This document shows, in pieces, positions 36,599-63,856 of a stretch of 64,000 nucleotides of DNA. The notes under the pieces were generated by a model that made no database searches, was not told the origin of the DNA, and saw nothing but the letters and a program-made list of their open reading frames with translations. Source of the DNA: an uncultured Candidatus Saccharibacteria bacterium (lineage in GTDB: Bacteria > Patescibacteriota > Minisyncoccia > Ryanbacterales > GWA2-47-10b); the NCBI GenBank assembly GCA_964356915.1, contig CAYHJF010000001.1:146200-210199 (forward strand), written 5' to 3'. How positions within the stretch are numbered: position 1 is the stretch's first letter; every line of letters starts with the position of its first letter. The position numbers and the translations under genes were made by a program.

Positions 36599-36600
36599 TG

Positions 36601-42096: not shown

Positions 42097-44236
42097 ACGC
42101 ACAAAATTTGAAACTACTGTCGCTGGTAAAAAAATAATTGTTGAATTTAATCCGATCGCCTCGCAGGCAAACGGTTCTGTTATGGTTCGTATGGGGGATA
42201 CCATCATTTTAGGCACGGCCGTCATGTCAAAAAATGCCCGCGAATCAATTGATTTTTTCCCACTCGTCGTTGATTACGAGGAAAAATATTACGCGGCCGG
42301 ACGAATCTTGGGATCTCGCTTCGTACGTAGAGAGGGACGCCCTTCTGAAGAAGCCGTTCTTATCTCGCGTCTCATTGACCGTACGATCCGTCCTCTTTTC
42401 GATCATCGTATTCGTAACGATGTACAGGTTGTTCTCATGGCACTTTCAGTTGACGAAGAAAACAGTCCTGATATCCCCGCAATTATGGCGGCATCACTCG
42501 CACTCGGTACATCAAATATTCCATGGGATGGGCCGGTAGCAGGAGCGCGCATTGCTCATATCGATGGAAATTTTGTCGTAAACCCAACTGATACAGAACG
42601 AGCGCTCTCAGAGATGGACCTTATCATCGCGGGAGGACATGGTCACATCAACATGATCGAAGGCAAAGCAAAAGAAATTCCTGAAGAACGCATACTTCAA
42701 GCTTTCGAAACCGCACTCAAAGAAATCGACCAACTCTCAAAGTTTCAAGAAGAGATTATTTCAAAAATCGGAAAAGAAAAATCTATACCAAAAATTGAAG
42801 AAGTTCCAGCAGAAGCTCACGACTCTCTTCAAAAACATTTTCGTACACGAATTGGCGATGCAATGTATACGCTTGGCAAAAAAGAACGCGAGCATGCGCT
42901 CTCAGATCTAAAATTTGAGTGGATGGAATCAATAAAAGAACGTTGCCCTGAACTCTCAAAGGGTATGGCGTCTTTACTCTTTGAAGAGACAATTGATGAA
43001 ACTGTTCATGAAAGAATATTAACAAAAGGAGAGCGCCCCGATGGACGCCACGTAAAAGAAGTTCGCCCACTACTTGCAGAAACAAGTCTTCTCCCGCGCG
43101 CACATGGATCCGGACTTTTTTTTCGCGGAGATACTCATATTCTATCGACCGTAACACTTGGAGCGCCGGGGGATGAGTTGCTGATCGAAGGCATGGATGT
43201 ACGAACAAAGAAACATTTCATTCATCACTATAACTTTCCTCCATTTTCAGTAGGAGAAACTGGACGCATGGGGTCTCCTGGACGGCGCGAGATCGGTCAC
43301 GGAGCTCTTGCAGAAAAAGCTCTTGAAGCAATTATTCCTCCAAAAGAAGTGTTCCCTTATACAATTCGTATCGTCTCCGAAACACTCTCATCAAATGGAT
43401 CGTCTTCGATGGGATCAGTTTGCGCATCTCTTTTAGCACTTATGGATGCAGGTGTACCGATTAAAAAACCGGTCGCGGGAATCGCGATGGGTCTCATGAT
43501 GGAAAGTGACACAAACTATAAAGTGCTTACTGACCTCCAAGGACCTGAGGATCATCATGGCGACATGGATTTTAAGGCCGCTGGAACAAAAGATGGTCTT
43601 ACTGCGATTCAAATGGATGTAAAGGTAAAAGGCGTAACGTTGGGGATTCTCAAAGATGCACTCGCAGATGCAAAAGATGCTCGCATGAAAATCATGAGCG
43701 TACTCTTAGAATGTATTGGTGAATCACGCAAAACACTCTCTCCCTATGCGCCTCGTATCATTCAAATGCAAATCCCAATTGATAAAATTCGCGACGTCAT
43801 TGGCCCAGGCGGTAAAACAATCAACGAGATTATTGCCGAAACTGGAGCTCAAATCGATATCGAACAAACCGGCGATATCTATATTACCGGTATGACTCAA
43901 GAAGCAGCCGAAAAGGCACAAGAACGAATCGCCCTCATTACAAAAGAAATTGAAGTTGGAACTATTTATAAGGGCAAGGTAACGCGCATCTTTGAATTTG
44001 GCGCGATGGTTGAAGTCGCTCCAAAACAAGAAGGTCTTGTTCATATCTCTGAACTTGCTCATCAGCGAGTTAACAAGGTTAGCGATGTCGTACAAGTCGG
44101 CGATGAAGTAACCGTACAAGTTACGCAAATTGATAGTCTTGGACGCATCAATCTCTCTATCAAAGCACTCACGGAAAAACCCGATGGTATGCCTGATGAG
44201 GAAAATCACAAACCTCGTCCGCAACACCGACGCTAA
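42089..44236 (+). CDS. pnp: polyribonucleotide nucleotidyltransferase (PNPase)
   Basis: Two RNase PH domains, KH (IGPGGKTINEII) and S1 (GTIYKGKVTRIFEFGAMVEV) domains. 715 aa. Confidence 0.9.
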   Translation: MLERTKFETTVAGKKIIVEFNPIASQANGSVMVRMGDTIILGTAVMSKNARESIDFFPLVVDYEEKYYAAGRILGSRFVRREGRPSEEAVLISRLIDRTIRPLFDHRIRNDVQVVLMALSVDEENSPDIPAIMAASLALGTSNIPWDGPVAGARIAHIDGNFVVNPTDTERALSEMDLIIAGGHGHINMIEGKAKEIPEERILQAFETALKEIDQLSKFQEEIISKIGKEKSIPKIEEVPAEAHDSLQKHFRTRIGDAMYTLGKKEREHALSDLKFEWMESIKERCPELSKGMASLLFEETIDETVHERILTKGERPDGRHVKEVRPLLAETSLLPRAHGSGLFFRGDTHILSTVTLGAPGDELLIEGMDVRTKKHFIHHYNFPPFSVGETGRMGSPGRREIGHGALAEKALEAIIPPKEVFPYTIRIVSETLSSNGSSSMGSVCASLLALMDAGVPIKKPVAGIAMGLMMESDTNYKVLTDLQGPEDHHGDMDFKAAGTKDGLTAIQMDVKVKGVTLGILKDALADAKDARMKIMSVLLECIGESRKTLSPYAPRIIQMQIPIDKIRDVIGPGGKTINEIIAETGAQIDIEQTGDIYITGMTQEAAEKAQERIALITKEIEVGTIYKGKVTRIFEFGAMVEVAPKQEGLVHISELAHQRVNKVSDVVQVGDEVTVQVTQIDSLGRINLSIKALTEKPDGMPDEENHKPRPQHRR

Positions 44237-45643: not shown

Positions 45644-47164
45644 ATGTCGAGCACTCTTGTATCCGGACAGGTCGTAGGTCTGAAAGGCGTTCGCATTGAT
45701 GTTGAGATCGATCTTTTACCCGGACTTCATCGTTTTACAATCGTTGGACTTCCTGACAAAGCAACTGAAGAAGCGCGTGAACGAGTATCCGCAGCGATTA
45801 AAAACTCTAACTTTCGTCCTCCCCAAAAGAAAAATCACCGTATCACCGTAAATCTCGCGCCGGCAGATCTCCCCAAAGAAGGCGCCTTATTTGATATACC
45901 GATCGCGCTCGGATATCTACGTGAATCTGAACAGTTAAAATTTGACCCGCAAGGAAAATTTTTCGTAGGAGAGCTCGCACTCGATGGTACCGTACGACCT
46001 GTGCGTGGCATACTACCTCTCGCTATCGCGGCTCGTGATTTTGGATGCACGGAGCTTTTTATCCCAAAAGAAAACGTACCTGAAGCATCTTTGATTGATG
46101 GGATTTCTATCTTTGAAGTCTCGACGTTGCGCGCGCTTACTGATCACCTCACAGGAACAGCACCCATCACACCAACAGCTCATAGAAAATTTGTACCAAC
46201 TCCTCATGAAACACGACATGATTTTCATGACATTAAAGGGCAAGAATTCGCGAAGCGAGGATTAGAAATCGCGGCAGCGGGAAATCATCATGTCGCATTT
46301 ATTGGACCCCCAGGAACAGGTAAGACACTCCTCGCGCGAGCGCTAGCCTCTGTTTTGCCACCGCTTTCTTTTAAGGAAGCTCTTGAAATCACATCAATCC
46401 ATAGTATTGCAGGCTCACTCGGACAAGGAGTCATGAGTACTCGTCCTTATCGTAGCCCACACCATACAACATCCTACGTCGCCCTCATTGGAGGTGGAAC
46501 AATTCCAAAGCCAGGAGAGATCACTCTCGCCCATAAAGGAGTACTATTCCTTGATGAATTTCCTGAATTTGAGCGACGTGTCATTGAAACGCTTCGCGAA
46601 CCACTCGAGGAGCGCTCGGTCACCGTCTCACGCGCCAAAGGTTCAATGAATTTCCCTGCTGACATCATGCTTGTTGCAGCAATGAATCCGTGTCCGTGCG
46701 GGAATCGCGGGTCTCAAAAAGAATGCGTCTGCGCGCCTCGAGATCTTCTGCGCTATTCAAGAAAAATATCTGGCCCAATCATTGATCGTATTGATATTTG
46801 GCTCACAATGTCTCCCGTAGACTATAAAAAATTGGAAGAAAAATCTTCCGGAGAATCTTCCACCCTCATACGAAAACGTGTTGAGAAAGCACGTTTACTC
46901 CAACAAAAACGTTTTTCAAAAACTACAATCTCCACAAACAGTCAGATGGGCATTAAAGAACTTAAAACATTCGCCTCTCTCGGCGAAGATGAGCAACAAT
47001 TACTCGAAGTTGCGGCAAAAAAACTCGACCTCTCCGCACGAGCATACCATCGAGTTATTAAGGTTGCGCGCACAATCGCAGATCTTGAAAACTCAAAGAC
47101 GATTAAAAAGGAACACCTTTTGGAAGCTCTTCGCTATAGACCACACCTTGAGACCCTTGAGTAA
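45644..47164 (+). CDS. comM: YifB/ComM-family Mg-chelatase-like AAA+ ATPase
   Basis: N-terminal Lon-protease-like domain. Walker A GPPGTGKT, Walker B LFLDEF. C-terminal Mg-chelatase ChlI domain and Cys cluster (CPCGNRGSQKECVC). 506 aa. Confidence 0.8.
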   Translation: MSSTLVSGQVVGLKGVRIDVEIDLLPGLHRFTIVGLPDKATEEARERVSAAIKNSNFRPPQKKNHRITVNLAPADLPKEGALFDIPIALGYLRESEQLKFDPQGKFFVGELALDGTVRPVRGILPLAIAARDFGCTELFIPKENVPEASLIDGISIFEVSTLRALTDHLTGTAPITPTAHRKFVPTPHETRHDFHDIKGQEFAKRGLEIAAAGNHHVAFIGPPGTGKTLLARALASVLPPLSFKEALEITSIHSIAGSLGQGVMSTRPYRSPHHTTSYVALIGGGTIPKPGEITLAHKGVLFLDEFPEFERRVIETLREPLEERSVTVSRAKGSMNFPADIMLVAAMNPCPCGNRGSQKECVCAPRDLLRYSRKISGPIIDRIDIWLTMSPVDYKKLEEKSSGESSTLIRKRVEKARLLQQKRFSKTTISTNSQMGIKELKTFASLGEDEQQLLEVAAKKLDLSARAYHRVIKVARTIADLENSKTIKKEHLLEALRYRPHLETLE

Positions 47165-47924: not shown

Positions 47925-48971
47925 CTAAAAAGGATTTTTTGCTCCACGAATCTCAAAGTGAAGATGACAACCAGTTGACTTACCTGTCGTACCAACAAGA
48001 CCAATGAGCTGGCCTTGCGTAACGCCCGCAGCAACTGATACGTCAACGGAACTTAAGTGCGCATACAATGTCTGCGTACCATTTGGATGCGCGATCGCGA
48101 CATACTTTCCATATCCTCCATTCCATCCGGACGAACGAGCGATCGCGACAGTACCACCAGCAGAAGCATACACGGGAGTCCCACATGAGTTAGCAAGATC
48201 AACGCCATTATATCCATGCACTCCACGAGATCGACGTCCTCCTGAAACTGGACGAATATAATACCCCGCAATTTCTGGACCTCCTGCACGCACATAAGTA
48301 GGAGTGCTACCACTCGGTCGCGTATCGACAGGTGGAGCCGTGAGCTCACCATCGGGCACAAGAACTACTGACCCCGCAGCAAGCGCCTCTCCAACCGTCA
48401 GGCCGTTGAAATCATAAATATCATCGGGATCACCACCATATTTTTTTGCGATCGATGCAACCGTATCGCCCCTTGCAACAGTATGCTTCACACCAGAGAC
48501 CGGAAGAATAACGAGTACTTGCCCAGGTTTAATTGACCCTGTACGCGAGATATCATTTGCCCAGCGAATCGTTGCTGGAGTAATATCAAATGTTTCTGCA
48601 ATAAGTGAAATTGTGTCACCCTCCCGTACTGTGTATGTCGTAATACGATATGACTGACTGAGTTCGGCTACATCTGCAATACTACCCATCGGCCCCACAA
48701 CGGGGACAAGCGCCGCATCATCAACGATCTCAAGACCGCCACCCCCAACTGCAATTTTTGGATCCGAGTTCTGAACTGCAGACAAAAAAGGGAATGGCTT
48801 TGCGGTCGCCTCCGTTGTCTCGGCTGCCGCATCAATTGACCATCCAAAGAAGCTTTTTATAAATCCCGTGAAACTAAAAGCGCTCGCCTGAAGAGGGAGC
48901 GCGAAAAGCAGTGACGCAATAAAAATAGCGCCTAACGTACCCCTTGAAACATGATTTTTTTGTCTTAACAC
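47925..48971 (-). CDS. LysM-domain M23 family metallopeptidase (peptidoglycan hydrolase)
   Basis: Signal/TM. Two LysM motifs (YTVREGDTISLIAETFDI; HTVARGDTVASIAKKYGG). M23 HxxxD and HLHFE active-site motifs (GVDLAN..GTPVYA...HLHFEIR). Confidence 0.75.
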   Translation of the reverse strand: MLRQKNHVSRGTLGAIFIASLLFALPLQASAFSFTGFIKSFFGWSIDAAAETTEATAKPFPFLSAVQNSDPKIAVGGGGLEIVDDAALVPVVGPMGSIADVAELSQSYRITTYTVREGDTISLIAETFDITPATIRWANDISRTGSIKPGQVLVILPVSGVKHTVARGDTVASIAKKYGGDPDDIYDFNGLTVGEALAAGSVVLVPDGELTAPPVDTRPSGSTPTYVRAGGPEIAGYYIRPVSGGRRSRGVHGYNGVDLANSCGTPVYASAGGTVAIARSSGWNGGYGKYVAIAHPNGTQTLYAHLSSVDVSVAAGVTQGQLIGLVGTTGKSTGCHLHFEIRGAKNPF

Positions 48972-49136: not shown

Positions 49137-51065
49137 GTGGCAATTCTCGACGGGCTCAATGATCGACAAAAAGAGGCAGTTTTGACTCAAAACGGGCCTT
49201 TATTAGTTATTGCCGGCGCAGGATCAGGAAAAACAAAAACTATCACTCACCGAATCGCCCATTTAATCGCAAACGGCGTAGAACCCAGTAAAATCCTTGC
49301 GGTTACATTCACCAATAAAGCCGCCGAAGAAATGAAAGAGCGGGTCTTCGCGCTCCTTCAAAAAGAAGGGCTGCATTCCTCAGAATGGAACCGTCCTTTT
49401 ATTGGAACCTTTCATGCGCTCGGTGTATCCATACTTCGCAGTCATGGATCTGCGATTGGCATCCCAAAAAACTTCAACATTCTCGACGAAGAAGACACTC
49501 GTCAAGTTTTTAAAAATCTCGTAAAAGAGTACGAACTTGATCCTGATGTATACGCACCCCAGCGCATACGATCGATCATCTCGAAATTAAAGCAGGACCT
49601 AACAGACCCCGCGCTCTATGCGGAACGTGTTGGCGCAAGTCCCTTTGAGCGCGCGGTCCTCATGATATACGGAGCGTATGAAGCAAATCTTTTCAAAACT
49701 CACGCCCTCGACTTTGACGATCTTTTAATGAAAACAATTATCTTATTTGAAAAATCAGAAACTGCGCGAGCATACTACGAACAACGCTGGGATTACATCC
49801 ATATCGACGAGTACCAAGACACAAATCAAGCGCAATATCTTCTCTCGCGTATTCTCGCGAGACGCACGAGCAACATCACAGTCGTTGGAGACGTTGATCA
49901 GGCGATTTATTCTTGGCGAGGGGCTGATTGGAGAAATATCTTACAATTTGAAGAAGATTGGCAAAATACAAAAACTATTCTTCTTGAAGAAAACTATCGC
50001 TCAACAGAAGTTATTCTTGAGGCTGCCAATGCGCTCATAGAGCACAATACGGAACGAAAAGAAAAAATTCTCTGGACTCAACGTAAAGGTGGGGAAAAAA
50101 TTGGACTCATCATTCTTGAAGATGAAAAGATGGAAGCACTCTTCATCGCTACCTACATACAACTTCTTGAAAAAAATGGCGCGCGTCTCGACGAGATAGC
50201 AGTACTTTTTCGTACCAATGCGCAATCGCGCGCAATCGAAGAAATGTTTTTAAAAAGAAAAATTCCTTACCGTCTTGTTTCTGGAGTTCGCTTTTATGAA
50301 CGAAAAGAAATTAAAGATGTTCTTGCGTATCTCAAATTCGCCTCAAACCCGTCTGATACGCTTTCTCAAAAAAGAATCTTGAATACACCTCCACGCGGTA
50401 TCGGCAAAGTTACCATGCTTAAATATCTAGGCGGAATGGCACTCGGGCGCCCTGAACAAGAGAAAATAGCCCGATTCCAAGACGTTATGGCTCGCATACA
50501 AAATGATATTACTTCTCTCCCAACATCCACAGCATTAAAAAATCTCCTCAATCATGCCGGCTTTGCATTCCACTATAAGGGGAACAAACTCGAGGAAGAC
50601 CGCTGGCAAAACATTCAAGAACTTCTTTCAGTTGCTCAAAAATTTGATAGCGTCAGTCCTCCCGAGGGGATTGAACGATTACTAACTGAAGCAGCACTGA
50701 TGAGCGAAACTGAAGAAACGGAAATACCGGAACATCAAGTCACACTCCTTACCGCACACTCAGCAAAGGGTCTTGAGTATCGCCATGTTATCATTGCCGG
50801 CATGGAAGAAGGATTATTTCCTCACAGTCTTTCCGAAACAAATTCGGACGTGGAAGAAGAGCGGCGACTTTTTTATGTTGCTCTCACACGAGCAAAAGAG
50901 AAACTTATTATCACACTCTCTCATAAACGGATGATTTTTGGAGAAACGTCTTACAATGATCCGTCTCGATTCTTAGGAGAAATCCCTGATCACCTTATCG
51001 AACATGCCTCTCTTGATCCACGCCACGACTCATCATATGAAGAAGAAACCATCTCGTTTGACTAA
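49137..51065 (+). CDS. pcrA: UvrD/PcrA-type ATP-dependent DNA helicase
   Basis: Motif I AGAGSGKTKTITHR, motif II DEYQDTN, and the rest of the SF1 helicase motifs through VALTRAKE. 642 aa. Confidence 0.85.
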   Translation: MAILDGLNDRQKEAVLTQNGPLLVIAGAGSGKTKTITHRIAHLIANGVEPSKILAVTFTNKAAEEMKERVFALLQKEGLHSSEWNRPFIGTFHALGVSILRSHGSAIGIPKNFNILDEEDTRQVFKNLVKEYELDPDVYAPQRIRSIISKLKQDLTDPALYAERVGASPFERAVLMIYGAYEANLFKTHALDFDDLLMKTIILFEKSETARAYYEQRWDYIHIDEYQDTNQAQYLLSRILARRTSNITVVGDVDQAIYSWRGADWRNILQFEEDWQNTKTILLEENYRSTEVILEAANALIEHNTERKEKILWTQRKGGEKIGLIILEDEKMEALFIATYIQLLEKNGARLDEIAVLFRTNAQSRAIEEMFLKRKIPYRLVSGVRFYERKEIKDVLAYLKFASNPSDTLSQKRILNTPPRGIGKVTMLKYLGGMALGRPEQEKIARFQDVMARIQNDITSLPTSTALKNLLNHAGFAFHYKGNKLEEDRWQNIQELLSVAQKFDSVSPPEGIERLLTEAALMSETEETEIPEHQVTLLTAHSAKGLEYRHVIIAGMEEGLFPHSLSETNSDVEEERRLFYVALTRAKEKLIITLSHKRMIFGETSYNDPSRFLGEIPDHLIEHASLDPRHDSSYEEETISFD

Positions 51066-51801
51066 TACCGTGCCGACCAGACCAAATAAACTACTTGGCC
51101 AAAATTTTTTGCGCTCAGAAAAAATTGTACTTAAAATCATCGATACGGCAAAACTTTCTTCGAGTGACACTGTGCTTGAAGTGGGACCGGGGAAAGGCAT
51201 ACTCACAAAAGAACTCGTCTCTCGAGCAGGTCATGTTATCGCAATCGAAAAAGATGCGCGATTCGCTGAACATATTAAACAAGAATTCGCTCGCGAAAAA
51301 AACTTAGAAATACTCTGTAACGACATCCTTCGTATCGACCGTGAGCTCATCGGCCTTCGAGAAGGAGACTACACTATCGTCGCAAATCTTCCTTACTATC
51401 TTACGTCTCATTTTCTTAGACTTTTTTTAGAAAAATCGCCACGACCAAAAACAATGGTCCTTATGGTACAAAAAGAAGTTGCGCTTCGCATCATTGCTTC
51501 ACCTCCTAATATGAATTTACTTGCGCTGTCCGTCCAAGCATTCGGAAGACCACGTATCGTTGTACGCGTGCCCAAAGAGCTTTTCAGTCCAAAACCAAAA
51601 GTTGACTCCGCTGTTATTGAAATATCTCAAATAAGCGAAAAGTTCTTTACAGACAACCACATTACGCCATCTCAATTCTTTCAACTTACTAAAAAAGCAT
51701 TTGCACAAAAGCGCAAAATGCTTAGAAACTCACTTGGCATCAACTCTGAAAAGCGCCCTCAAGAACTTTCGCTTGAAGATTGGTTAGTTCATCTGCGTTG
51801 A
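51037..51801 (+). CDS. rsmA: 16S rRNA (adenine1518/1519-N6)-dimethyltransferase RsmA/KsgA
   Basis: LGQNFL, VLEVGPGKGILT (SAM motif I), NLPY motif. Start at the internal Met overlapping the helicase end. Confidence 0.8.
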   Translation: MKKKPSRLTNTVPTRPNKLLGQNFLRSEKIVLKIIDTAKLSSSDTVLEVGPGKGILTKELVSRAGHVIAIEKDARFAEHIKQEFAREKNLEILCNDILRIDRELIGLREGDYTIVANLPYYLTSHFLRLFLEKSPRPKTMVLMVQKEVALRIIASPPNMNLLALSVQAFGRPRIVVRVPKELFSPKPKVDSAVIEISQISEKFFTDNHITPSQFFQLTKKAFAQKRKMLRNSLGINSEKRPQELSLEDWLVHLR

Positions 51802-52972: not shown

Positions 52973-53878
52973 TTGCACAGGATTGAGTGGTATAATAATA
53001 GCGGTGAAAAATATTCACCAACCACTTTGAGTTACATGCCTTCGAAAAAAATTCTTTTTGCCATCACCCTTGCTCTCACCATTATCGGTGGTACTGTTTT
53101 TGTCTCTAATCACAACGAAAGTCAAAAGAATATCATCCCAAAGCATGAGGCGGCGCTAAAAGCAGAGGTTATTCGTTCAGGAAAAGATTGGCAAAACACA
53201 CTTTCCGATAATCAATCCTTAAGCGGAAAGCAATTTACAACAAACCCCGAACAGAATCTCTTTGAAAACCTGGTACGCGGATATGGAGAAACGGTTATTT
53301 CAAACCAAACAACCAACCTCTCACAAGAATCGCTCCAAAATATTGCGGACGCCGTTGCGGCTGATGCTGACCTATCGGTAAAGGCAAATAAAAACCCTTA
53401 CTCCGCGACCGACGTAATGGTAGATCAGAAAGAAACGGTGAAAGAATACTTTAATAATGTTGCTCGCATAAGTAAGAAGTATTTTCCCGACAACTCAAAC
53501 AATGAAATTCTCGTAATAGGCAAAGCAGCCGCGACCAAACAAGTACAGACATTAGCAGAAGAGTTACAGTCTCATCATTATAGTTATAGCCAAGTAGCAA
53601 AAGAACTTGCTCGCGTTCATGTTCCACCGGAAGCGGTTGAAGTACATGTGGCATTTCTCAACTCATTTGCAAATGTTGCGCTCGCGATAGATGAAATTAG
53701 CGCGTTTAGCAGGAAAGACCCCCTCACTGGAGTACTTGGAATGGAAAACTACAAACTTGAACTTATTGAAGTCCCAAAAATATTTGCAAAAGCAAAGGCA
53801 CTAGCTCAAGCAAATCACATCGTATTTGCATCCGATGAGCCTGGGTACGAACTTCAAAAATATTTTGACAAAATATGA
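52973..53878 (+). CDS. hypothetical membrane-anchored protein (first gene of the secretion-system operon)
   Basis: TM (ILFAITLALTIIGGTVFV). True start possibly the internal Met at 53036. 4-nt overlap with the next gene. Confidence 0.35.
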   Translation: MHRIEWYNNSGEKYSPTTLSYMPSKKILFAITLALTIIGGTVFVSNHNESQKNIIPKHEAALKAEVIRSGKDWQNTLSDNQSLSGKQFTTNPEQNLFENLVRGYGETVISNQTTNLSQESLQNIADAVAADADLSVKANKNPYSATDVMVDQKETVKEYFNNVARISKKYFPDNSNNEILVIGKAAATKQVQTLAEELQSHHYSYSQVAKELARVHVPPEAVEVHVAFLNSFANVALAIDEISAFSRKDPLTGVLGMENYKLELIEVPKIFAKAKALAQANHIVFASDEPGYELQKYFDKI

Positions 53879-54867
53879 TCTCTAAACGCTACCAAAAAAT
53901 TATTGCGACATCTCTCCTTTTACTTTTGGTACACGCGGAGATTGCGCTCGCTGTCGTACCAACATGGGATGTAGGATTGAACGGACCTCCTCCAACTTTA
54001 AGTTTGGGTAACTACGGGATTCTCACTGCTCAAAGCGGTTGGGATGTAAGTAAAGAAAAGCAAATTGTTCTTCCGAGCCTTGATCTTTCCTCTATTGGAA
54101 GTTTTGCCTCAAGTGTTGCTGACGCGGCAGCATCTGCGGCATCAAACCTTATTCCTTCATGGGATAATATTATGTGGTATTTAACCCGCCTGATTGTGCA
54201 AGAATTGAAAAAAGAAGTCATTAGCTGGGCACAAGGAGGATTTCAAGGCGGGCCATCATTTATTGAGAACCCTGAACGATTTTTCACGAATGTGGGAGAC
54301 CAAGCATCTGCAATATTTATGGAAGAATTGGGCACTCGACTGACGGGAAATCCAAATTTTCTCTGTGAAGATTTCTCGTTCCAAATTCAACTCGCACTCC
54401 CCGGATATGGTAAATATGAAACACGCGCGGGATGTACAATCAACAAAGCAACCGAAAACTTTAAAAACATGTCGCAACACTTTGATAACTTTGAGAAAGG
54501 CGGATGGAAATCATTCGTTAATATCTCTCAAGAACAAAATAATTTTGGTGGGGCATACATGATGACATTTGATGCACGAAACGCTGCGATCAACCAGGCG
54601 ATTGGGAATCGCGCAGCAGCAGCTGGGTGGTCACAAGGATATCTTGGATCAGAAAATTGCCCTCCTGGCGCGCGAACACAATATGGGTGTCGAGGCTTTA
54701 AAGTCCAAACCCCTGGGAAACTTATCGGTGACCGTGTCGCACAAGCAGTGGGTACCGACTTTGAATCAGTTATCACCGCCGATGAGGTGGGGGAGGTGAT
54801 ACAAGTTCTTATCGATATGGCGATACAAAAGGTTGTTACCGATCTCGCGAATGGAGATAACGAATAA
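53875..54867 (+). CDS. hypothetical secreted protein (signal peptide)
   Basis: MISKRYQKIIATSLLLLLVHAEIALA signal peptide. Translationally coupled on both sides. Confidence 0.35.
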   Translation: MISKRYQKIIATSLLLLLVHAEIALAVVPTWDVGLNGPPPTLSLGNYGILTAQSGWDVSKEKQIVLPSLDLSSIGSFASSVADAAASAASNLIPSWDNIMWYLTRLIVQELKKEVISWAQGGFQGGPSFIENPERFFTNVGDQASAIFMEELGTRLTGNPNFLCEDFSFQIQLALPGYGKYETRAGCTINKATENFKNMSQHFDNFEKGGWKSFVNISQEQNNFGGAYMMTFDARNAAINQAIGNRAAAAGWSQGYLGSENCPPGARTQYGCRGFKVQTPGKLIGDRVAQAVGTDFESVITADEVGEVIQVLIDMAIQKVVTDLANGDNE

Positions 54868-54869
54868 TT

Positions 54870-57401
54870 ATGAAATTCTTTTCAAAATTTATCATCGTAG
54901 CTATCGTTCTCTCTATACTTTTCGCACCCGTGCAACCAGCACTTGCAAGTCACGATGGAACATCTCACGAAGAACCAAATTACACGCCCGCCCAAGACCC
55001 TAACAGTGAAAAGGTTATAAGAGACTCTGGAGTTCAAAATCGTCCGGGGGCAACACAGCGCGGAGGGATCCCCGATCCAGCGCACGGGATGGTTACTCCT
55101 GCGGGAGGGACTCCACCGACGGAGGCAGCCGCTGACACTGGCTGCATTAAAACAGGACCTCTTGGCGTTCCGTACCCTGGTGACTTAAAGATGTGTGTCG
55201 TAGAAATTTTTGCTCACATAGCAAACTGGGTAATGTGGGGCATGTCATGGTTTGTCTGGATGTCAGCAAAGTTTCTTAACATGGCTCTTGCCATTCAAAA
55301 CGAAGCGTTTATCGATCCTGTTCTTGTAAATGTCGGGTGGCAGATTGCGCGTGACACCGTAAACATGTTCTTTATTCTGGTTATACTCGTTATTGCGATT
55401 TCAATGATCCTTGGCCTCGGACAATATGGAACTAGTCAGACGCTCGTATCTCTCCTCATATCTGCCGTGCTCATTAACTTTAGCCTCCCGCTCACGGGTA
55501 TTGTTATTGATTTTTCAAATACACTTGGTAATACCTTCTACGACAAAATGGGAAGCGAGCAGGATAACGACATCGCTGGCATGGAAGGCATACGAAAACG
55601 CGATATCTCTGTCGTGTTAGTCAGTGGATTTGCCGTTCAAAAAACATTTCAAACAACGGGAACCGCTACTTTTGGGTCATCATTCAATACAATATCGAAC
55701 ATCATTCTCAATGGACTCATGGGATCTATTCTCATGGCCATTATGTCATTCACACTCCTTGCGGCTACGGCACTCTTGATTATGCGAATTATCGTGCTCT
55801 GGATACTAATGATCCTCTCGCCACTCGCTTTCTTCGCAAATGGAGTCCCAAGCTTAAAAGGATACTTTGGCACCTGGGCAAGTAAGCTTATGCGACAAGC
55901 ATTTTTCTATCCCGCCTATATGTTTATGCTCTATCTCGTCGTATCGGCAATCGACGGGGGAGTTATTGAGCATCTCTTTAAAAGCCAACACGCGCTGAGT
56001 ACCGCAAGCATGTTTCAATCAGCCGAAGCACAAGCATTTACGGGAGCGATCACATCAAAGGTAAATATCATCCTTGGATTCGTCTTTTTGGGAGCTCTAA
56101 ATATCGCTGCTCTCACCGTGGCAACAAGCATGGGTGCCTATGGAGCGGGCGCTGTCATGAAGCAATGGGGGAGCGTCTCTGGTCAAGCACGATCTCTCGG
56201 AAGACGAATCGCCACCTCTCCACTACGCTCACGCGCAGCAGGAGCGGTCGCATCTGGAGTTGCCACGACCACTGGGTCTGCCGCTGGCCTTGCCGGTCGT
56301 ATACCTCTTATCGGCAACGCAACAGCTCGTGGGCTTGCTCGTGCTGGCAGTGCCCCTCAACGAGCCTATACCAAAGCGGCCGAAGAGCGCGCCACTCAAC
56401 GAACTGACTACATGAAGACGCTCTCTCCGCGAGACTTTACCGCAAGCATGCACACAATAACGCAACCTCAAGATCAGGCACGTGCCTGGAAAAATGCCAA
56501 CGATTCACAGCGCGCTTCATATATGCAAAGTCTTGATCCTCAAGCACAAGTACAGTTCATCAACTCAGTCCATGGACACGTCGCCCAGCAACAAGGAACT
56601 CGTGAAGCTGACGCATTTAGGAAACAGGCAGCCTTGTCTGGAGGTGGGGTCGGAACCGCACTCACGGCACTCTACGGTCAGCAAAGCCCCATACTACAAA
56701 GATTTAATGGGAGAGCTGCTACCGATATTACAGACGCGGAGTTTGCTGCAGCGGGCACAACGCGCTCACAATACACAACAGAACGTCAATCTCGCATGGG
56801 TAACTTGGTACGCAATATGAGTGAAGGTGATCTTGGAAAAGTTGCCGCCGCATCAGTCGCAGGGGACACTGATTTCCGTCGTGCACTCCTCGAACAAGGA
56901 AAAGATGTAAACAAGCTTACTGAGATCAAAGAAGGTGTGAGCGAAGATACACGACGAGCATATGAAGAGTTCTCAGCTCTTACAAAGAACCCCTCGCGTG
57001 CAGTAGAGCTACGCTATGGTATGCCCGAACCTCAAGCAGGTGCCTCTCAACAAGAGATCGATGCGTTCCAAGGGAATATGAATGAATGGGTTGGGAATAT
57101 GGATGACAAGACGGTCAGTAAGCTCGATGCAAACGCGATTAGAAATAATCACTACTTGCAAAACGCCATGGCACAGATGTTTAGCCCTCAAGACATTAAG
57201 CGTGTTGCAAGTAACACTGAACGGGCGCAGGCTTTGCACGATCTCTTTTATCGAGATCAGGGCGTTAATCGCTCACCAGAATTTAATCAATTTGTACAAG
57301 ATAATCAGAGACTTTCAAAAGGAATTAAAGGAAACGCTGGAGTCCGATCAGTCATATTCGGCGGTCGCGTAGCAACAAAGCGTGATGTCGATACTCCATA
57401 A
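54870..57401 (+). CDS. VirB6/TrbL-like polytopic membrane protein with long hydrophilic C-terminal tail
   Basis: Signal peptide, at least 6 TM helices in the central 350 aa, then a roughly 400-aa A/G/R/Q-rich soluble tail. This architecture and its position upstream of VirB3/VirB4-like genes fit T4SS VirB6 homologues. Confidence 0.45.
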   Translation: MKFFSKFIIVAIVLSILFAPVQPALASHDGTSHEEPNYTPAQDPNSEKVIRDSGVQNRPGATQRGGIPDPAHGMVTPAGGTPPTEAAADTGCIKTGPLGVPYPGDLKMCVVEIFAHIANWVMWGMSWFVWMSAKFLNMALAIQNEAFIDPVLVNVGWQIARDTVNMFFILVILVIAISMILGLGQYGTSQTLVSLLISAVLINFSLPLTGIVIDFSNTLGNTFYDKMGSEQDNDIAGMEGIRKRDISVVLVSGFAVQKTFQTTGTATFGSSFNTISNIILNGLMGSILMAIMSFTLLAATALLIMRIIVLWILMILSPLAFFANGVPSLKGYFGTWASKLMRQAFFYPAYMFMLYLVVSAIDGGVIEHLFKSQHALSTASMFQSAEAQAFTGAITSKVNIILGFVFLGALNIAALTVATSMGAYGAGAVMKQWGSVSGQARSLGRRIATSPLRSRAAGAVASGVATTTGSAAGLAGRIPLIGNATARGLARAGSAPQRAYTKAAEERATQRTDYMKTLSPRDFTASMHTITQPQDQARAWKNANDSQRASYMQSLDPQAQVQFINSVHGHVAQQQGTREADAFRKQAALSGGGVGTALTALYGQQSPILQRFNGRAATDITDAEFAAAGTTRSQYTTERQSRMGNLVRNMSEGDLGKVAAASVAGDTDFRRALLEQGKDVNKLTEIKEGVSEDTRRAYEEFSALTKNPSRAVELRYGMPEPQAGASQQEIDAFQGNMNEWVGNMDDKTVSKLDANAIRNNHYLQNAMAQMFSPQDIKRVASNTERAQALHDLFYRDQGVNRSPEFNQFVQDNQRLSKGIKGNAGVRSVIFGGRVATKRDVDTP

Positions 57402-57406
57402 ATATT

Positions 57407-57994
57407 ATGTCTTACCCAAGAACTGAAATAGAAAAACGATACGAAAACCTTCCTGAATCACTCAAGGAGCTTTTGTTTGCGGACGAAACAACCGAACACA
57501 TTGAAGCGCTCGGACAAAAGTATAATTTACTTCTCGATAAAACTGGCGCCCTTTCCGAAGAGGTGGGATACTTTGTTCTTGGTCTCACTCATCCAAAAAA
57601 TTTCCGCGGGCGGATCATTAGCGCGACAGGTGTATCTGATATTCAAGCAAACGAAATTATCGAAGACCTCAACAACTCCCTTTTCCGACCGCTCCGTAAC
57701 GAACTCATGGCGCTTCACGGGGAAGGGGACGCAGCGTTTATAACAACAGTCACTCCGAAACCGGAGAGCGCATTCTCATACCAAAGCATTAAACCGAAAC
57801 CGATTCCTTCGGCGCCAGTTTTCAGCTCAACTACATCTCCCGCCCAATCTCAACAAACAACAACGCCATCTCAATCCGTACAATCACCTCAAGTAACTGA
57901 GACTCGACCGAGCGCAACTGAAAAACTCGTACCTTCATCTCCTCAGACCCAAAGCACGATTATCAATGATCCGTACCGTGAGATACCTACATAA
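57407..57994 (+). CDS. hypothetical protein with S/T/P/Q-rich C-terminus
   Basis: ORF with RBS spacing. Low-complexity tail (SAPVFSSTTSPAQSQQTTTPSQSVQSPQ). Confidence 0.3.
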   Translation: MSYPRTEIEKRYENLPESLKELLFADETTEHIEALGQKYNLLLDKTGALSEEVGYFVLGLTHPKNFRGRIISATGVSDIQANEIIEDLNNSLFRPLRNELMALHGEGDAAFITTVTPKPESAFSYQSIKPKPIPSAPVFSSTTSPAQSQQTTTPSQSVQSPQVTETRPSATEKLVPSSPQTQSTIINDPYREIPT

Positions 57995-58002
57995 TATTTC
58001 CC

Positions 58003-58413
58003 ATGCAACAGTTTCAAGTTCCACAATTCATTGATGTCGAAGATAAAATCTTCGGACAGCTTACCGCAAAGCAATTTCTTTACCTCTTAGGAGGTGGAGC
58101 GTTTATGCTCGTCTTTTGGCTCATGCGCCTACCTACGATCATACTTTTTTTTCTTATGGCTCTATTTGGTGGATTCTTTGGAGCGCTCGCATTCGCAAAA
58201 GTTAACGGCCAACCATTTGTCGTATTTCTCAATAATGCCGCAAACCACTACATACACCAGCGCATCTACATATGGAAGCGCCGAGAAAAAAAAGCCGAGG
58301 CAGCCGCAGAAATAGCCGCCGCCACAACTCCATATACGCCCAAACTTACAAAAAATGCTCTCAAAGAACTATCCTGGTCGCTTGATATTAAGAACGTTGA
58401 ACATAGACGATAA
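58003..58413 (+). CDS. VirB3-like small two-TM protein
   Basis: 136 aa with two adjacent TM helices (FLYLLGGGAFMLVFWLM; IILFFLMALFGGFFGALAF), immediately upstream of the VirB4 genes with a 1-nt overlap. This is the conserved VirB3-VirB4 arrangement. Confidence 0.4.
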   Translation: MQQFQVPQFIDVEDKIFGQLTAKQFLYLLGGGAFMLVFWLMRLPTIILFFLMALFGGFFGALAFAKVNGQPFVVFLNNAANHYIHQRIYIWKRREKKAEAAAEIAAATTPYTPKLTKNALKELSWSLDIKNVEHRR

Positions 58414-59087
58414 TGGCATTTGTTGAATCAAAACTCGCCGCAAAAGCAGCCGCATCCCAAGAGCTCGTCCCTATTCGAGAAGTTCGTAATGGCGTCGTTA
58501 TTTTAAAGGATGGCTCTCTTCGTGTTGTATTGATGGCCTCGAGTCTCAATTTTGCTCTCAAATCAGCCGTGGAGCAGGATGCTATCATTCTTCAGTACCA
58601 AAATTTTCTTAATTCTCTCGATTTCTCAATCGAGTTTTTCATTCAATCCCGCAAACTCAATATCGAGCCTTACCTTGAAACACTACGCGCACGACTCAAA
58701 GTAGAAACAAGCGAGCTTTTGAAAATTCAGATCTCTGAATATATTACATTTGTAAAAGATTTTGTAACAACAGCAAATATTGTTTCGAAAACATTCTATG
58801 TTGTTATTACATACGTTCCATCTTCAATTACCGTGAACTCAGCGACTGGTGGTTTTTTTGGAAAAAAGAACTCTGGGAAGGCCTTCGATGAATCAAAATT
58901 TCAAGAATATCAAGTGCAACTCTCTCAACGCTCAAGCGTAGTTATCGACGGACTCGCACGATGCGGCGTGCGCGCAGTACCACTCAACACAGAAGAACTC
59001 ATTGAACTTTATTATGGTCTTTACAACCCAGGTGAAGCGGAAAAGGGGGGCGCACCCGAACTTCTCAGTCAGGAGCAACAAGGATAA
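58413..59087 (+). CDS. VirB4/TrbE N-terminal domain encoded as a separate ORF
   Basis: LVPIREVRNGVVILKDGSLRVVLMASSLNFALKSAVEQDAIIL resembles the N-terminus of Gram-positive-type VirB4 ATPases (ip..i.dGiivtkDg.y..il.v.piNf.l.s..Eq). Ends 4 nt before the VirB4 core ORF in a different frame. Confidence 0.5.
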   Translation: MAFVESKLAAKAAASQELVPIREVRNGVVILKDGSLRVVLMASSLNFALKSAVEQDAIILQYQNFLNSLDFSIEFFIQSRKLNIEPYLETLRARLKVETSELLKIQISEYITFVKDFVTTANIVSKTFYVVITYVPSSITVNSATGGFFGKKNSGKAFDESKFQEYQVQLSQRSSVVIDGLARCGVRAVPLNTEELIELYYGLYNPGEAEKGGAPELLSQEQQG

Positions 59088-59091
59088 TTAT

Positions 59092-60909
59092 ATGGGAATT
59101 TTTGACTTTCTATCAAAAAAAGAACCGAGCAGCGAAGCTCTGCCCGTTCTTCCGCAAGAAATTTATACTTCCGGACTTTTAGAGCTACAAGACGTTATCG
59201 CACCGTCTGCACTTGAGGTCAATTCAAACTACATCCGACTCGGAGAAAAGCTCGCGCGTACTATTTTCGTATTCGCGTACCCACGGTTTCTTGCAACAGG
59301 GTGGTTTTCGACAACGATAAACCTCGATAAAATTTTTGATGTCGCGATTTACATTCACCCCGTCGACACAAGTATTGTTATGCGACAACTTCGAAAAAAG
59401 GTTGCGCAGGTACAGTCACAGATCTCTACACGAGAAGAAAAGGGGCTCGTCCGTGATCCAATGCTCGATACTGCACACCAAGATCTCGAAAGTCTTCGCG
59501 ATAAACTTACTCAGGCACAAGAAAAGCTCTTTCAGTTTGGAATCTATCTCACGATCTACGCGAACACCATAGAAGAACTCAATCAAAATGAGACTGAAAT
59601 TAAATCGCTTTTAGAGGCTCGCCTCGTCTATTCAAAACCCGCACTCTTTCAACAGAAAGAGGGTCTCAATACCGTATTTCCATTTGGGAAAGATGAAATC
59701 GGCGTATACAGCTTCTTTAACTCATCCCCCGCCTCATCTGTCTTTCCATTTGTCTCCTTTGATCTCACCTCAAACAAAGGGATCTTGTTTGGCATCAACC
59801 GCCACAACAACTCCCTCATTCTCTTCGATCGCTTTGGAATGGAAAATTATAACTCAGTTATGTTCGCAAAGTCTGGATCTGGAAAATCATATACTACCAA
59901 ACTTGAGATTCTTCGCTCTCTTATGTTTGATACTGACGTAATCGTCATCGACCCAGAACGCGAATATGAGTACCTTGCCGAGTCCGTAGGGGGGCGCTAT
60001 TTTAATATCTCTCTTACCTCAAAGCACCACATCAATCCATTTGATTTACCCGTGCCTCGCGAAGATGAATCGCCTGCAGATGTCCTACGCTCGCACATCA
60101 TTGGACTCGTCGGGCTATTCCGACTCATGCTTGGCGGTCTCACACCTGAAGAGGATGCAATTATCGACCGCGCGATCACAGAAACATATGCCGCGCGAGA
60201 CATTACACCTAATGCTGATTTTTCTCAAACAGCCCCTCCAACTCTATCAGATCTCCAGCTCGTACTTGCAAACATGCAGGGCGGGGAAAATCTTGGAATA
60301 CGTCTTAAAAAATATACGGAAGGTACTTGGGCTGGGTTTATTAACCAACCCTCAAACGTTAACATCAATCAACGGCTAATCGTCTTTTCAATCCGTGACA
60401 TGGAAGAAGAGCTTCGCCCAATCGCAATGTATCTTATCGTTAACTATATCTGGAGCGCAGTACGTCGAAGTCTCAAAAAACGCCTACTCGTCATCGATGA
60501 GGCGTGGATCATGATGAAATCTCAAGACAGCGCATCTTTTCTTTACGGCCTTGTAAAGCGGGCTCGCAAATATTATCTTGGCGTCGCTACTATTACGCAA
60601 GATGTCGCTGATTTTATGCAATCACCGTATGGCAAGCCAATTGTCACTAACTCATCGATTCAACTTCTTCTTAAGCAATCTCCTGCCTCCATTAACGCAG
60701 TCCAAGATATTTTTAATCTTACTGAAGAGGAAAAGTTTCTTCTTCTGGAATCTGACGTTGGGGAGGGGATCTTCTTTGCAGGCCTTAAACACGTAGCGAT
60801 TAAAGTACAGGCATCCTATACCGAGCATCAAATCATCACTTCTGATCCAAAAGAACTTCTTGCCATTAAACAAGCAAAAGATTCAATACAAACAGGGGGC
60901 ACCTTTTAG
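59092..60909 (+). CDS. VirB4/TrbE/CagE-family type IV secretion ATPase (core and C-terminal ATPase domains)
   Basis: YPRFLATGWFSTTINLD (VirB4 middle-domain pattern), Walker A MFAKSGSGKS, Walker B LLVIDEAW, ITQDVADF. Start at MGIFDF with RBS aggat. Confidence 0.7.
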   Translation: MGIFDFLSKKEPSSEALPVLPQEIYTSGLLELQDVIAPSALEVNSNYIRLGEKLARTIFVFAYPRFLATGWFSTTINLDKIFDVAIYIHPVDTSIVMRQLRKKVAQVQSQISTREEKGLVRDPMLDTAHQDLESLRDKLTQAQEKLFQFGIYLTIYANTIEELNQNETEIKSLLEARLVYSKPALFQQKEGLNTVFPFGKDEIGVYSFFNSSPASSVFPFVSFDLTSNKGILFGINRHNNSLILFDRFGMENYNSVMFAKSGSGKSYTTKLEILRSLMFDTDVIVIDPEREYEYLAESVGGRYFNISLTSKHHINPFDLPVPREDESPADVLRSHIIGLVGLFRLMLGGLTPEEDAIIDRAITETYAARDITPNADFSQTAPPTLSDLQLVLANMQGGENLGIRLKKYTEGTWAGFINQPSNVNINQRLIVFSIRDMEEELRPIAMYLIVNYIWSAVRRSLKKRLLVIDEAWIMMKSQDSASFLYGLVKRARKYYLGVATITQDVADFMQSPYGKPIVTNSSIQLLLKQSPASINAVQDIFNLTEEEKFLLLESDVGEGIFFAGLKHVAIKVQASYTEHQIITSDPKELLAIKQAKDSIQTGGTF

Positions 60910-60912
60910 TGT

Positions 60913-61431
60913 ATGGACGAAGAATACGAATTTGCAGCAGACCTACATAGCTCTCGATTATTAGATGCTGAGAGATTAAAACATCTCGTAGTCGATGCTG
61001 CGGAACGAGTCGCTCGAAAACTCAACGAGCTTATTGCTCAAGGACATGACACTACAGCGTTTTCAATTGCCTTATTTCTTGCCCTACTCAAAGATGTCGT
61101 ACTAGATTTTCTCCTTGATTTTACCGGTATCGGACTTATTCCTGTTCTTGGCCAATTACCTGGACTCTTTGTAAGTGCCGCTCTCATGTACTTTTTATGG
61201 GGGAAAGGATGGTTTTTGGCGCCTCGAGTACGAATTATCTGGTGGATCTTTGGATTTTTCTTTGATAACCTACCTCTTTTTGAAGAATTGCCCATCACAA
61301 TCATTGTAGTTCTTTACGCATGGCACATTGTTCGTAAACGAGCGGAGAAAGCCCAAGCTCAACTTGAGAATCTCAACTCCCTAACTGAAAGAGAACTGGA
61401 AGAGATTGAGGATGAGTTAGTTATAGCCTAA
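60913..61431 (+). CDS. small polytopic membrane protein (candidate pilin/VirB2-like or accessory subunit)
   Basis: 3-4 hydrophobic helices in 172 aa. Tightly linked to VirB4. Confidence 0.3.
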   Translation: MDEEYEFAADLHSSRLLDAERLKHLVVDAAERVARKLNELIAQGHDTTAFSIALFLALLKDVVLDFLLDFTGIGLIPVLGQLPGLFVSAALMYFLWGKGWFLAPRVRIIWWIFGFFFDNLPLFEELPITIIVVLYAWHIVRKRAEKAQAQLENLNSLTERELEEIEDELVIA

Positions 61432-61459
61432 CGATGCCAGGAACGTTATAATAAAAGAA

Positions 61460-62638
61460 GTGATGCATACGCTCAGAAAAAAAATATCAGCAACATTGCC
61501 TATCTTGATTATAATCTCGTGCTTCTTCGCGTCTTCTGTATCAGCCCAAGAAATCGCATCCACAACACCTCAAGTTTTTACCCCACAAGACCTTACCGTT
61601 GAGCAACAACTCATCATACGAAAACAAATCCTTGATCTATTTGGCATCCCTACCGACGCTCAAATTAGTCTTTTTGATACGATAAAGGGAAATCCATTTG
61701 GAAATAGCCTACCAGGAAAACTTGACCCTCTTCGTGATGTGGAGATTGTTGTTGGAGACGAAGCACTACAACCAGGAACACGCGGATCTTTATATGTAGT
61801 CGCGGCAAACACAAACCTACGCCAATCAACAATCACGTGGTCACGAAACAACAAGATAGAAGCCTCAGGGAAAGGAGCAACTGTTTTTTCCTTTCCTGTA
61901 GGAGCGATCGGATCGCGTGATATTATAAAAGTGACTATACGAACGCCTGAAGGTAGCGTGAAGCAGCTAACCAAAACCATTAACCCCGCGCGCATTCACT
62001 TTGCCTGGTCAACAGACTCCTACACCCCGACATGGTATCGAGGAAAAGCTCTTCCAGTCCCTGGTTCAGGCATTAGTGTAACCGCCTTTCCTGAAGTCCG
62101 AGTAAATAATATTCCTGTCCCTCAGGCAAACCTTGATTACGAATGGTCTGTAAATGATGAGGTGCGCCTACGAGAACAACGGGGGGCATCAACGTTTTCT
62201 TTTTTGACATCGGAGTTCCAGCGTACACCCTATCAAATTAGCGTGCGGGTACGTGACTCTCAGCGTAATGTTGTCCACCGAGAAACAATATTAATAAAAA
62301 CTGTAAGTCCATTTATCAGATTTTATCGAGAGGACGCGCTTTATGGACTCATGACAAATGCTTCCATCCAAAATCTTGTACTAAAACCAGGTGATGATTC
62401 TTTAATTGATTTTGAGCCTTACCACATGCCCTACGGCGCACTTGATAATATGGCTTTCCGGTGGGATTTTGGATCCAATCAAGGACAGCAAACAGGGATT
62501 AATGACCGCAAGCTACGCATCACCACTCCATCAGACGGACTCTCCAGTTGGTCTCTCTCAATATCATACTCAACTCCCTCACATGTGCTCTTGCGTGGAA
62601 AATCTGACCTCTTAACTATCAGTAATCAATCTCTCTAA
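61460..62638 (+). CDS. hypothetical secreted protein (signal peptide)
   Basis: MMHTLRKKISATLPILIIISCFFASSVSA signal. Beta-rich composition. Confidence 0.35.
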   Translation: MMHTLRKKISATLPILIIISCFFASSVSAQEIASTTPQVFTPQDLTVEQQLIIRKQILDLFGIPTDAQISLFDTIKGNPFGNSLPGKLDPLRDVEIVVGDEALQPGTRGSLYVVAANTNLRQSTITWSRNNKIEASGKGATVFSFPVGAIGSRDIIKVTIRTPEGSVKQLTKTINPARIHFAWSTDSYTPTWYRGKALPVPGSGISVTAFPEVRVNNIPVPQANLDYEWSVNDEVRLREQRGASTFSFLTSEFQRTPYQISVRVRDSQRNVVHRETILIKTVSPFIRFYREDALYGLMTNASIQNLVLKPGDDSLIDFEPYHMPYGALDNMAFRWDFGSNQGQQTGINDRKLRITTPSDGLSSWSLSISYSTPSHVLLRGKSDLLTISNQSL

Positions 62639-62641
62639 ATT

Positions 62642-63856
62642 ATGTCTCGCAGAACTCAAATAATTCTCGGCATCATCGCCATCATACTCATTATCGCCCT
62701 TGGCGTGTGGCTCTTTTTACGGAACCGAACTGGGTCCACAGCAGGAGGAGGGCTACCATTTTTTGGAGGAGGGAATCTACCTTCAACAGGAGGGAATGGG
62801 GGATCTTTGGGCGGAGGATCGACTCCTGGAGGAGAGCTGGAGAATATTCCTACGGGCGGTACTGTACCCGTAACTGAAGAAGAGAAAAAGCGTCTCGTCC
62901 AGCTCACCCATGAACCAACAATTGGAGCTACTGTAAGTCCAGCTGAAAATCGAGTTATGTACTTCAAACTTGGTCTCGGACATCTTTTTGACACCGCATT
63001 TGACGGAGAAGGTGGGGAAGTGAACCTCTCCACAATCACAACAAAAAATATCATTGACGTGGACTGGTCAACAAAAAAAACGTATGCCTTTGTCACTGGG
63101 CTTATTAACGACTCTGTTGAAAATCACTGGTTTCACATAACAAGCACTTCTACAGTAGAACACGGCACGTTTCGTGAACCGATCGTAAGTGCGGATTTTT
63201 CTCCATCAGCAGAAAAGCTCGTTACCATAGTAAGAGCCGGGAAAACATCGACCGTACGTACCTCGAACCCCGATGGATCAAATATGAAACAACTTATCGC
63301 ACAACAAATCCCCGATCTAGATGTCGAGTGGATTAGGCAAGATCTCGTATTTCTTAAAACGAAAACTTCTGCGTTCGCAGAAACTCTCCTTGAGACTGTT
63401 TCTATTCCTTCCGGAATATCAACGTTCGTACCATTCAACCAAAAAGGAGTTGATGTTTTATGGCACCCCGATGGTGACCAATATCTCGCATCTGTAAGCG
63501 ATGATAATGGGGCCTTTAGTAGCATCACACTTCGATCGCGCACATCTCCAAATTACAAACCATTTCTCTATCGCACCGTACCCGAAAAATGTTACTTCTC
63601 TAAAAAAGATTCGAAAGTTCTCTATTGTGCAATTCCGAAAAATTTTACCGTTGACTCTATGCCTGACATTTGGTGGCAAGGAAGTATACAGTTCTCTGAT
63701 GAGCTCTGGAAAATCAATATCGAAAGTGGCGAAACAACAATTCTTCTTGATGGTGGTGGCTTCGACATAACAAACCTGTTTACATCTCCAAATGAAAATT
63801 TCATTTTCTTTATTAATAAAAATGACCTAACTCTTTGGAGCTATAGACTTTTATAA
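62642..63856 (+). CDS. membrane-anchored Gly-rich, beta-propeller-like (PD40/TolB-like repeats) protein
   Basis: N-terminal TM (IILGIIAIILIIALGVWLF), G-rich linker, recurring xPDGxx motifs (SNPDGSNM; WHPDGDQYLA; SPNENFIFF) as in TolB/DPP-IV-type propellers. Confidence 0.35.
   Translation: MSRRTQIILGIIAIILIIALGVWLFLRNRTGSTAGGGLPFFGGGNLPSTGGNGGSLGGGSTPGGELENIPTGGTVPVTEEEKKRLVQLTHEPTIGATVSPAENRVMYFKLGLGHLFDTAFDGEGGEVNLSTITTKNIIDVDWSTKKTYAFVTGLINDSVENHWFHITSTSTVEHGTFREPIVSADFSPSAEKLVTIVRAGKTSTVRTSNPDGSNMKQLIAQQIPDLDVEWIRQDLVFLKTKTSAFAETLLETVSIPSGISTFVPFNQKGVDVLWHPDGDQYLASVSDDNGAFSSITLRSRTSPNYKPFLYRTVPEKCYFSKKDSKVLYCAIPKNFTVDSMPDIWWQGSIQFSDELWKINIESGETTILLDGGGFDITNLFTSPNENFIFFINKNDLTLWSYRLL

Follow-up and report, generated by a model that had tools for sequence, protein, structure and literature searches.

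Adjacent genes for a TrsD-like protein and a short VirB4 ATPase in a presumed chromosomal type IV secretion cluster of Patescibacteria

A 64,000-nucleotide stretch of DNA from an uncultured bacterium of the Patescibacteria (hereafter the window; contig CAYHJF010000001.1 of assembly GCA_964356915.1, positions 146,200 to 210,199 of the forward strand) carries two adjacent open reading frames (ORFs) that correspond to successive parts of VirB4, the ATPase of type IV secretion systems (T4SSs), and that are called ORF1 and ORF2 here (Table 1). ORF1 starts with ATG, encodes 224 amino acids (aa) and ends with the TAA codon at 59085-59087; this is followed by a spacer of only 4 nt and by the ATG of ORF2, which lies in the +1 frame relative to ORF1, 7 nt past the first base of the ORF1 stop, and opens a frame of 605 codons plus stop. 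An earlier annotation made from the letters alone (the sequence-only reading) had described the same layout, a VirB4 encoded as two ORFs separated by 4 nt and a +1 frame change, and its coordinates, stop codon, spacer and start codon all stand, the length of 606 aa given there for ORF2 being one residue too high. It had also noted a good ribosome-binding site before ORF2, in agreement with the AAGGA motif found 7 nt 5' of the ATG, within the last codons of ORF1, where it presumably acts as the Shine-Dalgarno sequence of ORF2. The frame of ORF2 is open from a TTG at 59002 (the longest mechanical ORF, 635 aa), and the frames of the two ORFs overlap by 86 nt. This TTG was considered as the start of ORF2 and rejected, as the alignments with homologues begin at the ATG (59092), with query residue 1 matched in most loci. 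A G6 homopolymer occupies 59046-59051, 34 nt 5' of the ORF1 stop, and on the other side of ORF1 its ATG is overlapped by 1 nt by the TAA of a PrgI-like gene.

Table 1. Features of the trsD-virB4 locus and its surroundings (coordinates refer to the window)
Feature	Coordinates	Strand	Basis
TrsD-like protein (ORF1), 224 aa, stand-alone and homologous to VirB4 over its first ~200 residues	58413..59087	+	homologues carry PF26593 'TraC-like'
Short-form VirB4 ATPase (ORF2), 605 aa, distal N-terminal domain and RecA-like ATPase domain	59092..60909	+	CD1110, P-loop_TraG, 4AG5 and TrsE matches
Shine-Dalgarno-like AAGGA	59080..59084	+	read from the sequence; putative function
Spacer 'ttat' between TAA and ATG	59088..59091	+	sequence
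Walker A	59866-59892	+	within short VirB4
Walker B	60484-60507	+	within short VirB4
PrgI/VirB3-like small membrane protein, 136 aa	58003..58413	+	Pfam PF12666 PrgI, E 1.4e-9, above cutoff
Operon-like run of ten genes, presumed chromosomal T4SS cluster	52973..63856	+	ORF packing

ORF2 is a member of the VirB4 family of T4SS ATPases. It scores above the curated cutoff of the NCBIfam model NF045971 conju_CD1110 (360.7 bits, cutoff 325, E 1.5e-107) and above that of Pfam P-loop_TraG (86.7 bits, cutoff 25.8, E 1.7e-24), and its residues 227-583 match the C-terminal ATPase domain of VirB4 in PDB entry 4AG5 (E 4.4e-45). Its RecA-like ATPase domain contains an intact Walker A motif (GSGKS, residues 261-265, inside the matched string AKSGSGKSY at 259-267) and an intact Walker B motif (LLVIDEAW, residues 465-472), and the adjacent PrgI/VirB3-like gene provides the neighbouring T4SS membrane component that is characteristic of virB4 genes. 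The full N-terminal domain is not carried with these features on one polypeptide of ~800 aa, as the match of ORF2 to the CD1110 model begins at position 178 and ends at 734 of 752. Judged from sequence, ORF2 is the short VirB4 form typical of the TrsE/CPR (Candidate Phyla Radiation) clade, and the segment missing from its N-terminus is the one supplied by ORF1, the two ORFs jointly covering the CD1110 model from 2 to 734.

The similarity of ORF1 to VirB4 is more remote. Matches to the VirB4_plasma model (positions 99-234 of 894, E 3.7e-8) and to the CD1110 model (positions 2-122 of 752, E 8.5e-5) were significant and below the family cutoffs, and the NCBIfam TrsD/TraD model NF041427, which was built on Firmicutes plasmids, gave 22.8 bits (cutoff 200, E 6.9e-5). 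With the CD1110 matches at 2-122 and 178-734, these results bear out the earlier assignment of ORF1 to the VirB4 N-terminal domain and of ORF2 to the middle and ATPase domains, and the similarity of the N-domain ORF to VirB4, the lack of which in a profile search was to count against that reading, is present at the E-values given. The Pfam family PF26593, named 'TraC-like', is precomputed on all 120 closest ORF1 homologues (the best 120 of 7,416), and this assignment is known from the homologues alone; a local Pfam scan of ORF1, made with a copy lacking PF26593, returned just a sub-threshold match to TraC_F_IV (E 0.1). ORF1 has the features expected of TrsD, being a stand-alone protein homologous to the N-terminal portion of VirB4, within the expected length of ~200-230 aa, and encoded directly 5' of a short virB4 and 3' of a VirB3-like gene. 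An AlphaFold2 model of ORF1 reached a mean pLDDT (predicted local distance difference test) of 72, with low confidence at residues 1-17, 140-154 and 205-224, and in a Foldseek search with this model TrwK/VirB4 of R388 filled the first 12 PDB ranks (probability 0.80-0.99, E 4e-3 to 8e-2), while the ORF1 alignment, used as a sequence profile against the PDB, produced chance matches alone (E > 1). The structural evidence for ORF1 as a homologue of the VirB4 N-terminus is supportive rather than decisive.

The split itself is widely conserved among relatives. When each GTDB species was represented by a single genome, the scan yielded 80 loci with a relative of ORF1, all of them in metagenome-assembled genomes (MAGs) of Patescibacteria (Ryanbacteria, Giovannonibacteria, Niyogibacteria, Tagabacteria, Vogelbacteria, Paceibacterota and similar groups), and in all 79 of these loci whose sequence reaches across both genes, the counterparts of ORF1 and ORF2 are separate ORFs. 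This comparison with related genomes, which the sequence-only reading had advised, favors the first of the options that it had listed, a genuine split with each part translated separately. The junction was measurable in 78 of the 79 loci, giving 79 junctions with that of the window, and the distance from stop to start ranges among them from -14 to +485 nt, with frame offsets of 0, 1 and 2 in 17, 39 and 23 cases, respectively. Seven of the loci (L021, L025, L051, L068, L075, L077 and L010) have the two genes in the same frame, apart by the stop codon and 0-1 further codons; in L025 the TAA is directly followed by the ATG, and in such same-frame loci loss of the stop codon alone would fuse both genes.

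The stand-alone state of the N-terminal piece is also apparent at the protein level. A protein search retrieved 7,416 homologues of ORF1, the best 120 of which are all 215-238 aa long, and among 1.84 billion cluster representatives a search by profile yielded 3,270 clusters (50% identity) at E <= 0.001, the top 150 representatives being stand-alone with a single exception (P0203). ORF1 evolves faster than ORF2, with 50-69% identity between the window and its relatives as compared with 68-85% for ORF2 in the full-length loci. The ratios of nonsynonymous to synonymous substitution rates (dN/dS) are low in both, 0.04-0.12 for ORF1 in gene pairs with dS < 1 and 0.02-0.04 for ORF2 in four such pairs, and by this measure both genes are under strong purifying selection. 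In an alignment of 20 ORF1 homologues, 55 columns are invariant, and these include P206 and P215 near the C-terminus, past the G6 run. Within VirB4, the break is flanked by an ELYxxLYNP motif and a DVIAP...GEK motif and appears to sit in a short, poorly conserved linker that is probably disordered. Taken at the level of comparative sequence analysis, the split is shown to be old, conserved and under selection, and it is a genuine, ancient two-gene arrangement instead of an oddity of this genome.

Many TrsD-like homologues are longer than ORF1, reaching 280-443 aa because they end in long C-terminal tails of low complexity, in which P, Q, T and A abound (for example P0201, P0181, P0191, P0161, P0210, P0174, P0138, P0194 and P0130). 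The homologues of 300-443 aa were considered as truncated fusions with VirB4 and rejected as such, being TrsD-like proteins with low-complexity tails and no ATPase fused.

The single exception, P0203, is an uninterrupted TrsD-VirB4 fusion of 797 aa (positions 544-2937 of locus L082; MAG GCA_964615945.1, contig CAZTUR010000004.1). It aligns collinearly with ORF1 (46% identity) and then with ORF2 (57%), which directly shows the two proteins of the window to be the two halves of one VirB4. Its junction, CGC CAA GGG ATG GGC GGA, equals that of the window, CAA CAA GGA TAA ttat ATG GGA, minus the 7 nt that make up the TAA and the ttat spacer, and an internal AAGGG-ATG is retained at the old start. 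The fused gene belongs to the same family as the pair in the window and likewise has a PrgI gene upstream, differing as a single ORF; it is followed by a gene for ~165 aa and lies near dnaA. Such fusions are rare, with one among the top 150 cluster representatives and none among the 79 species loci, and P0203 itself comes from a single contig.

With high confidence, the two ORFs are distinct genes of a chromosomal T4SS of Patescibacteria (CPR, Paceibacteria-type), transcribed together and translated independently, and encode a TrsD-like N-terminal piece and a short VirB4. The sequence-only reading had left room for programmed frameshifting, for a recent mutation making a pseudogene and for an indel introduced by sequencing, and all three are rejected on account of the two-ORF state in 79 of 79 species, the variation of spacers and frame offsets, the low dN/dS values and the conservation of the ORF1 C-terminus in its own frame. 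A programmed +1 ribosomal frameshift, or a bypass of the stop codon, would yield a full-length VirB4 of ~830 aa, and could draw on the open overlap between the frames, on the summed length of the two ORFs, which equals that of a canonical VirB4, and on the very existence of the natural fusion. It is nevertheless highly improbable, since the occurrence of all three frame offsets together with spacers of variable length, up to 485 nt, leaves no conserved frameshift site, relatives do not share the open overlap in the ORF2 frame, a good Shine-Dalgarno sequence and ATG stand exactly where the homologues start, and the conservation of the ORF1 C-terminus in its own frame continues as far as P215. 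The slippery-sequence or frameshift signals that had been proposed for inspection did not emerge: no conserved slippery site or frame relation was detected across the 79 junctions, and the folding of the junction RNA does not surpass that of shuffled sequences (z +1.2), revealing no stimulatory structure. That a recent mutation, or an indel introduced in sequencing or assembly, broke a single virB4 in this genome is scarcely conceivable. The G6 homopolymer shortly before the stop is indeed prone to indels, but the residues encoded past it (APE...) fit the family consensus in the ORF1 frame and the invariant P206 and P215 indicate that it hides no indel. The same state recurs, moreover, in independent assemblies of different species and in thousands of stand-alone homologues of 215-240 aa, while dN/dS far below 1 in both genes (0.02-0.12), the intact Walker motifs and the separate Shine-Dalgarno sequence and ATG of ORF2 all argue against decay.

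It is also conceivable, though unlikely, that the TrsD-like protein descends from the VirB4 N-terminus and no longer functions as a piece of VirB4, having become an independent T4SS accessory factor such as an adaptor, a regulator or a substrate-recruitment module. The faster evolution of ORF1, the long low-complexity tails of many homologues and the spacers of up to 485 nt, which suggest that expression can be uncoupled, would all be compatible with such a role, as would the TrsD homologues of Gracilibacteria, most of which do not adjoin virB4 (PMC12102498). On the other hand, the short VirB4 is without the segment that the TrsD-like protein supplies, the adjacency to virB4 is near-universal in this lineage, at least one MAG has a viable fused form, and the gene, flanked by the VirB3-like gene and virB4, occupies exactly the place expected of the N-terminus.

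Under the favored interpretation of a TrsD-like piece working together with a short VirB4, the pair would be transcribed together, and a ribosome terminating at the ORF1 TAA would initiate or re-initiate at the ATG 4 nt further on by means of the AAGGA motif. Coupling of this kind is probable, and the 1-nt overlap between the PrgI-like stop and the ORF1 start also suggests translational coupling. The two polypeptides would then reassemble non-covalently. In the R388 system the N-terminal domains of VirB4 connect each dimer's protomers with one another, are embedded in the membrane and make contact with VirB3 and VirB8 (PMC12857230). By analogy, the part played there by the VirB4 N-terminus would be taken in trans by the TrsD-like protein, which would link the PrgI/VirB3-like protein to the short ATPase, dimerise the ATPase and anchor it at the membrane.

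The pair belongs to a tight run of ten plus-strand genes, spaced by -4 to +28 nt, which is presumed to be a chromosomal T4SS cluster, membership being deduced from adjacency. Six cluster genes (52973, 53875, 54870, 57407, 60913 and 61460/62642 among them) have no match in Pfam or NCBIfam. One of these, at 54870..57401 on the plus strand and two genes 5' of the PrgI-like gene, encodes a protein of 843 aa whose first half contains many hydrophobic segments and which by position only is a candidate VirB6-like channel subunit. The ~165-aa gene that follows the fused virB4 of L082 is comparable to genes of this cluster. A scan for promoters and terminators over 52500-64000 showed no enrichment over shuffled sequences and nothing on the plus strand at the trsD-virB4 junction. 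The best sigma-70-like match of the region (11 of 12 positions; TTGATA, 18 nt, TATAAT) falls on this junction in the opposite orientation (59116..59087, minus strand) and is probably a chance product of the AT-rich spacer, as the number of matches in the region does not exceed that in shuffles.

Just upstream of the cluster lie KsgA (51004..51801, plus strand) and an M23 peptidase with two LysM domains (47925..48971, minus strand), the latter a possible VirB1 analogue. UvrD (49137..51065), a ComM/Mg-chelatase-like ATPase (45644..47164) and PNPase (42089..44236) are also encoded in the window, and these neighbors show that the locus is chromosomal. Eight tRNA genes, including three for tRNA-Pro (GGG, TGG and CGG) and two for tRNA-Arg, were noted in the first 37 kb (within 1024..36672).

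Quinonero-Coronel et al. 2025 (PMC12102498) describe TrsD as a remote homologue of the N-terminal portion of VirB4 and as the most abundant T4SS component in Patescibacteria, where 1,664 of its 2,272 homologues are associated with virB4; the word TrsD does not occur in the main text of Guglielmini 2014 (PMC4027160). In Ca. Southlakia epibionticum ML1 the TrsD homologue is given as essential (PMC12102498, citing Wang 2023), and the T4SS of Patescibacteria is reported to be essential for the epibiotic lifestyle in the one species tested. KsgA is frequent near virB4, and VirB1 homologues with M23 or LysM domains have been found whose association with virB4 is mainly seen in Paceibacteria (PMC12102498), a neighborhood that is matched by the KsgA and M23/LysM genes of the window. 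The published TrsD and VirB4 pair and that of the window come from the same taxon, the nearest relatives of the latter being Ryanbacteria, Giovannonibacteria and other Paceibacteria-type MAGs, and they agree in the adjacency of the TrsD-like gene to virB4, the PrgI/VirB3 gene upstream, the chromosomal location and the two nearby genes, with no substantive difference. A trsD gene followed by virB4 is the normal, already described state of the family in Patescibacteria. The present analysis adds the statistics of spacers and frames at the junctions, the dN/dS values and one natural fusion. For annotation, a 'hypothetical protein' adjacent to a 'short VirB4/DUF87' in CPR genomes should be neither flagged as a frameshifted pseudogene nor merged. 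Knowledge of a two-piece ATPase with its break in a probably disordered linker is useful for structural and genetic work, even though it will not be new to specialists.

Outside Patescibacteria, a close parallel is found in the Staphylococcus aureus plasmid pSK41, where a 135-aa gene (TrsC-like) is followed by trsD of 227 aa, annotated as TrsD/TraD family, and by the 672-aa DUF87 ATPase TrsE. The order and sizes match those of the window (136, 224 and 605 aa), and the PrgI-like position before trsD is held by the 135-aa gene in pSK41 as it is by the PrgI gene in L082. ORF2 and TrsE align in BLASTP (E 1e-34) collinearly from residue 34 of the former and 36 of the latter, which places the break in VirB4 at the same point. 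The likeness of ORF1 to the staphylococcal TrsD is remote, the ORF1 profile being collinear with it over 176 columns at 19% identity (hhalign E 0.012). The pSK41 system (MPF_FATA, pGO1 subclass) is plasmid-borne and has a relaxase and a coupling protein for conjugation, whereas the locus in the window is chromosomal and lies among housekeeping genes. As a speculative and rather doubtful proposal, the identical break in Patescibacteria and in the staphylococcal pGO1/pSK41 pairs may go back to a single ancient fission, which would tie the CPR T4SS to the pGO1 subclass, and the separate N-terminal piece may since have been exploited, for instance through a variable TrsD:VirB4 stoichiometry or through lineage-specific low-complexity TrsD tails acting as adaptors. 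If this were true, P0203 and other rare re-fusions would amount to natural experiments on it.

Canonical single-chain VirB4 proteins, such as CD1110 of integrative and conjugative elements of Firmicutes, TrwK of R388 and TraC of F, have the ATPase domain and Walker motifs in common with ORF2, and the N-terminal region of TrwK is resembled by the model of ORF1. The canonical protein, however, is a single chain, whereas in the window its first ~200 residues are encoded as a separate protein.

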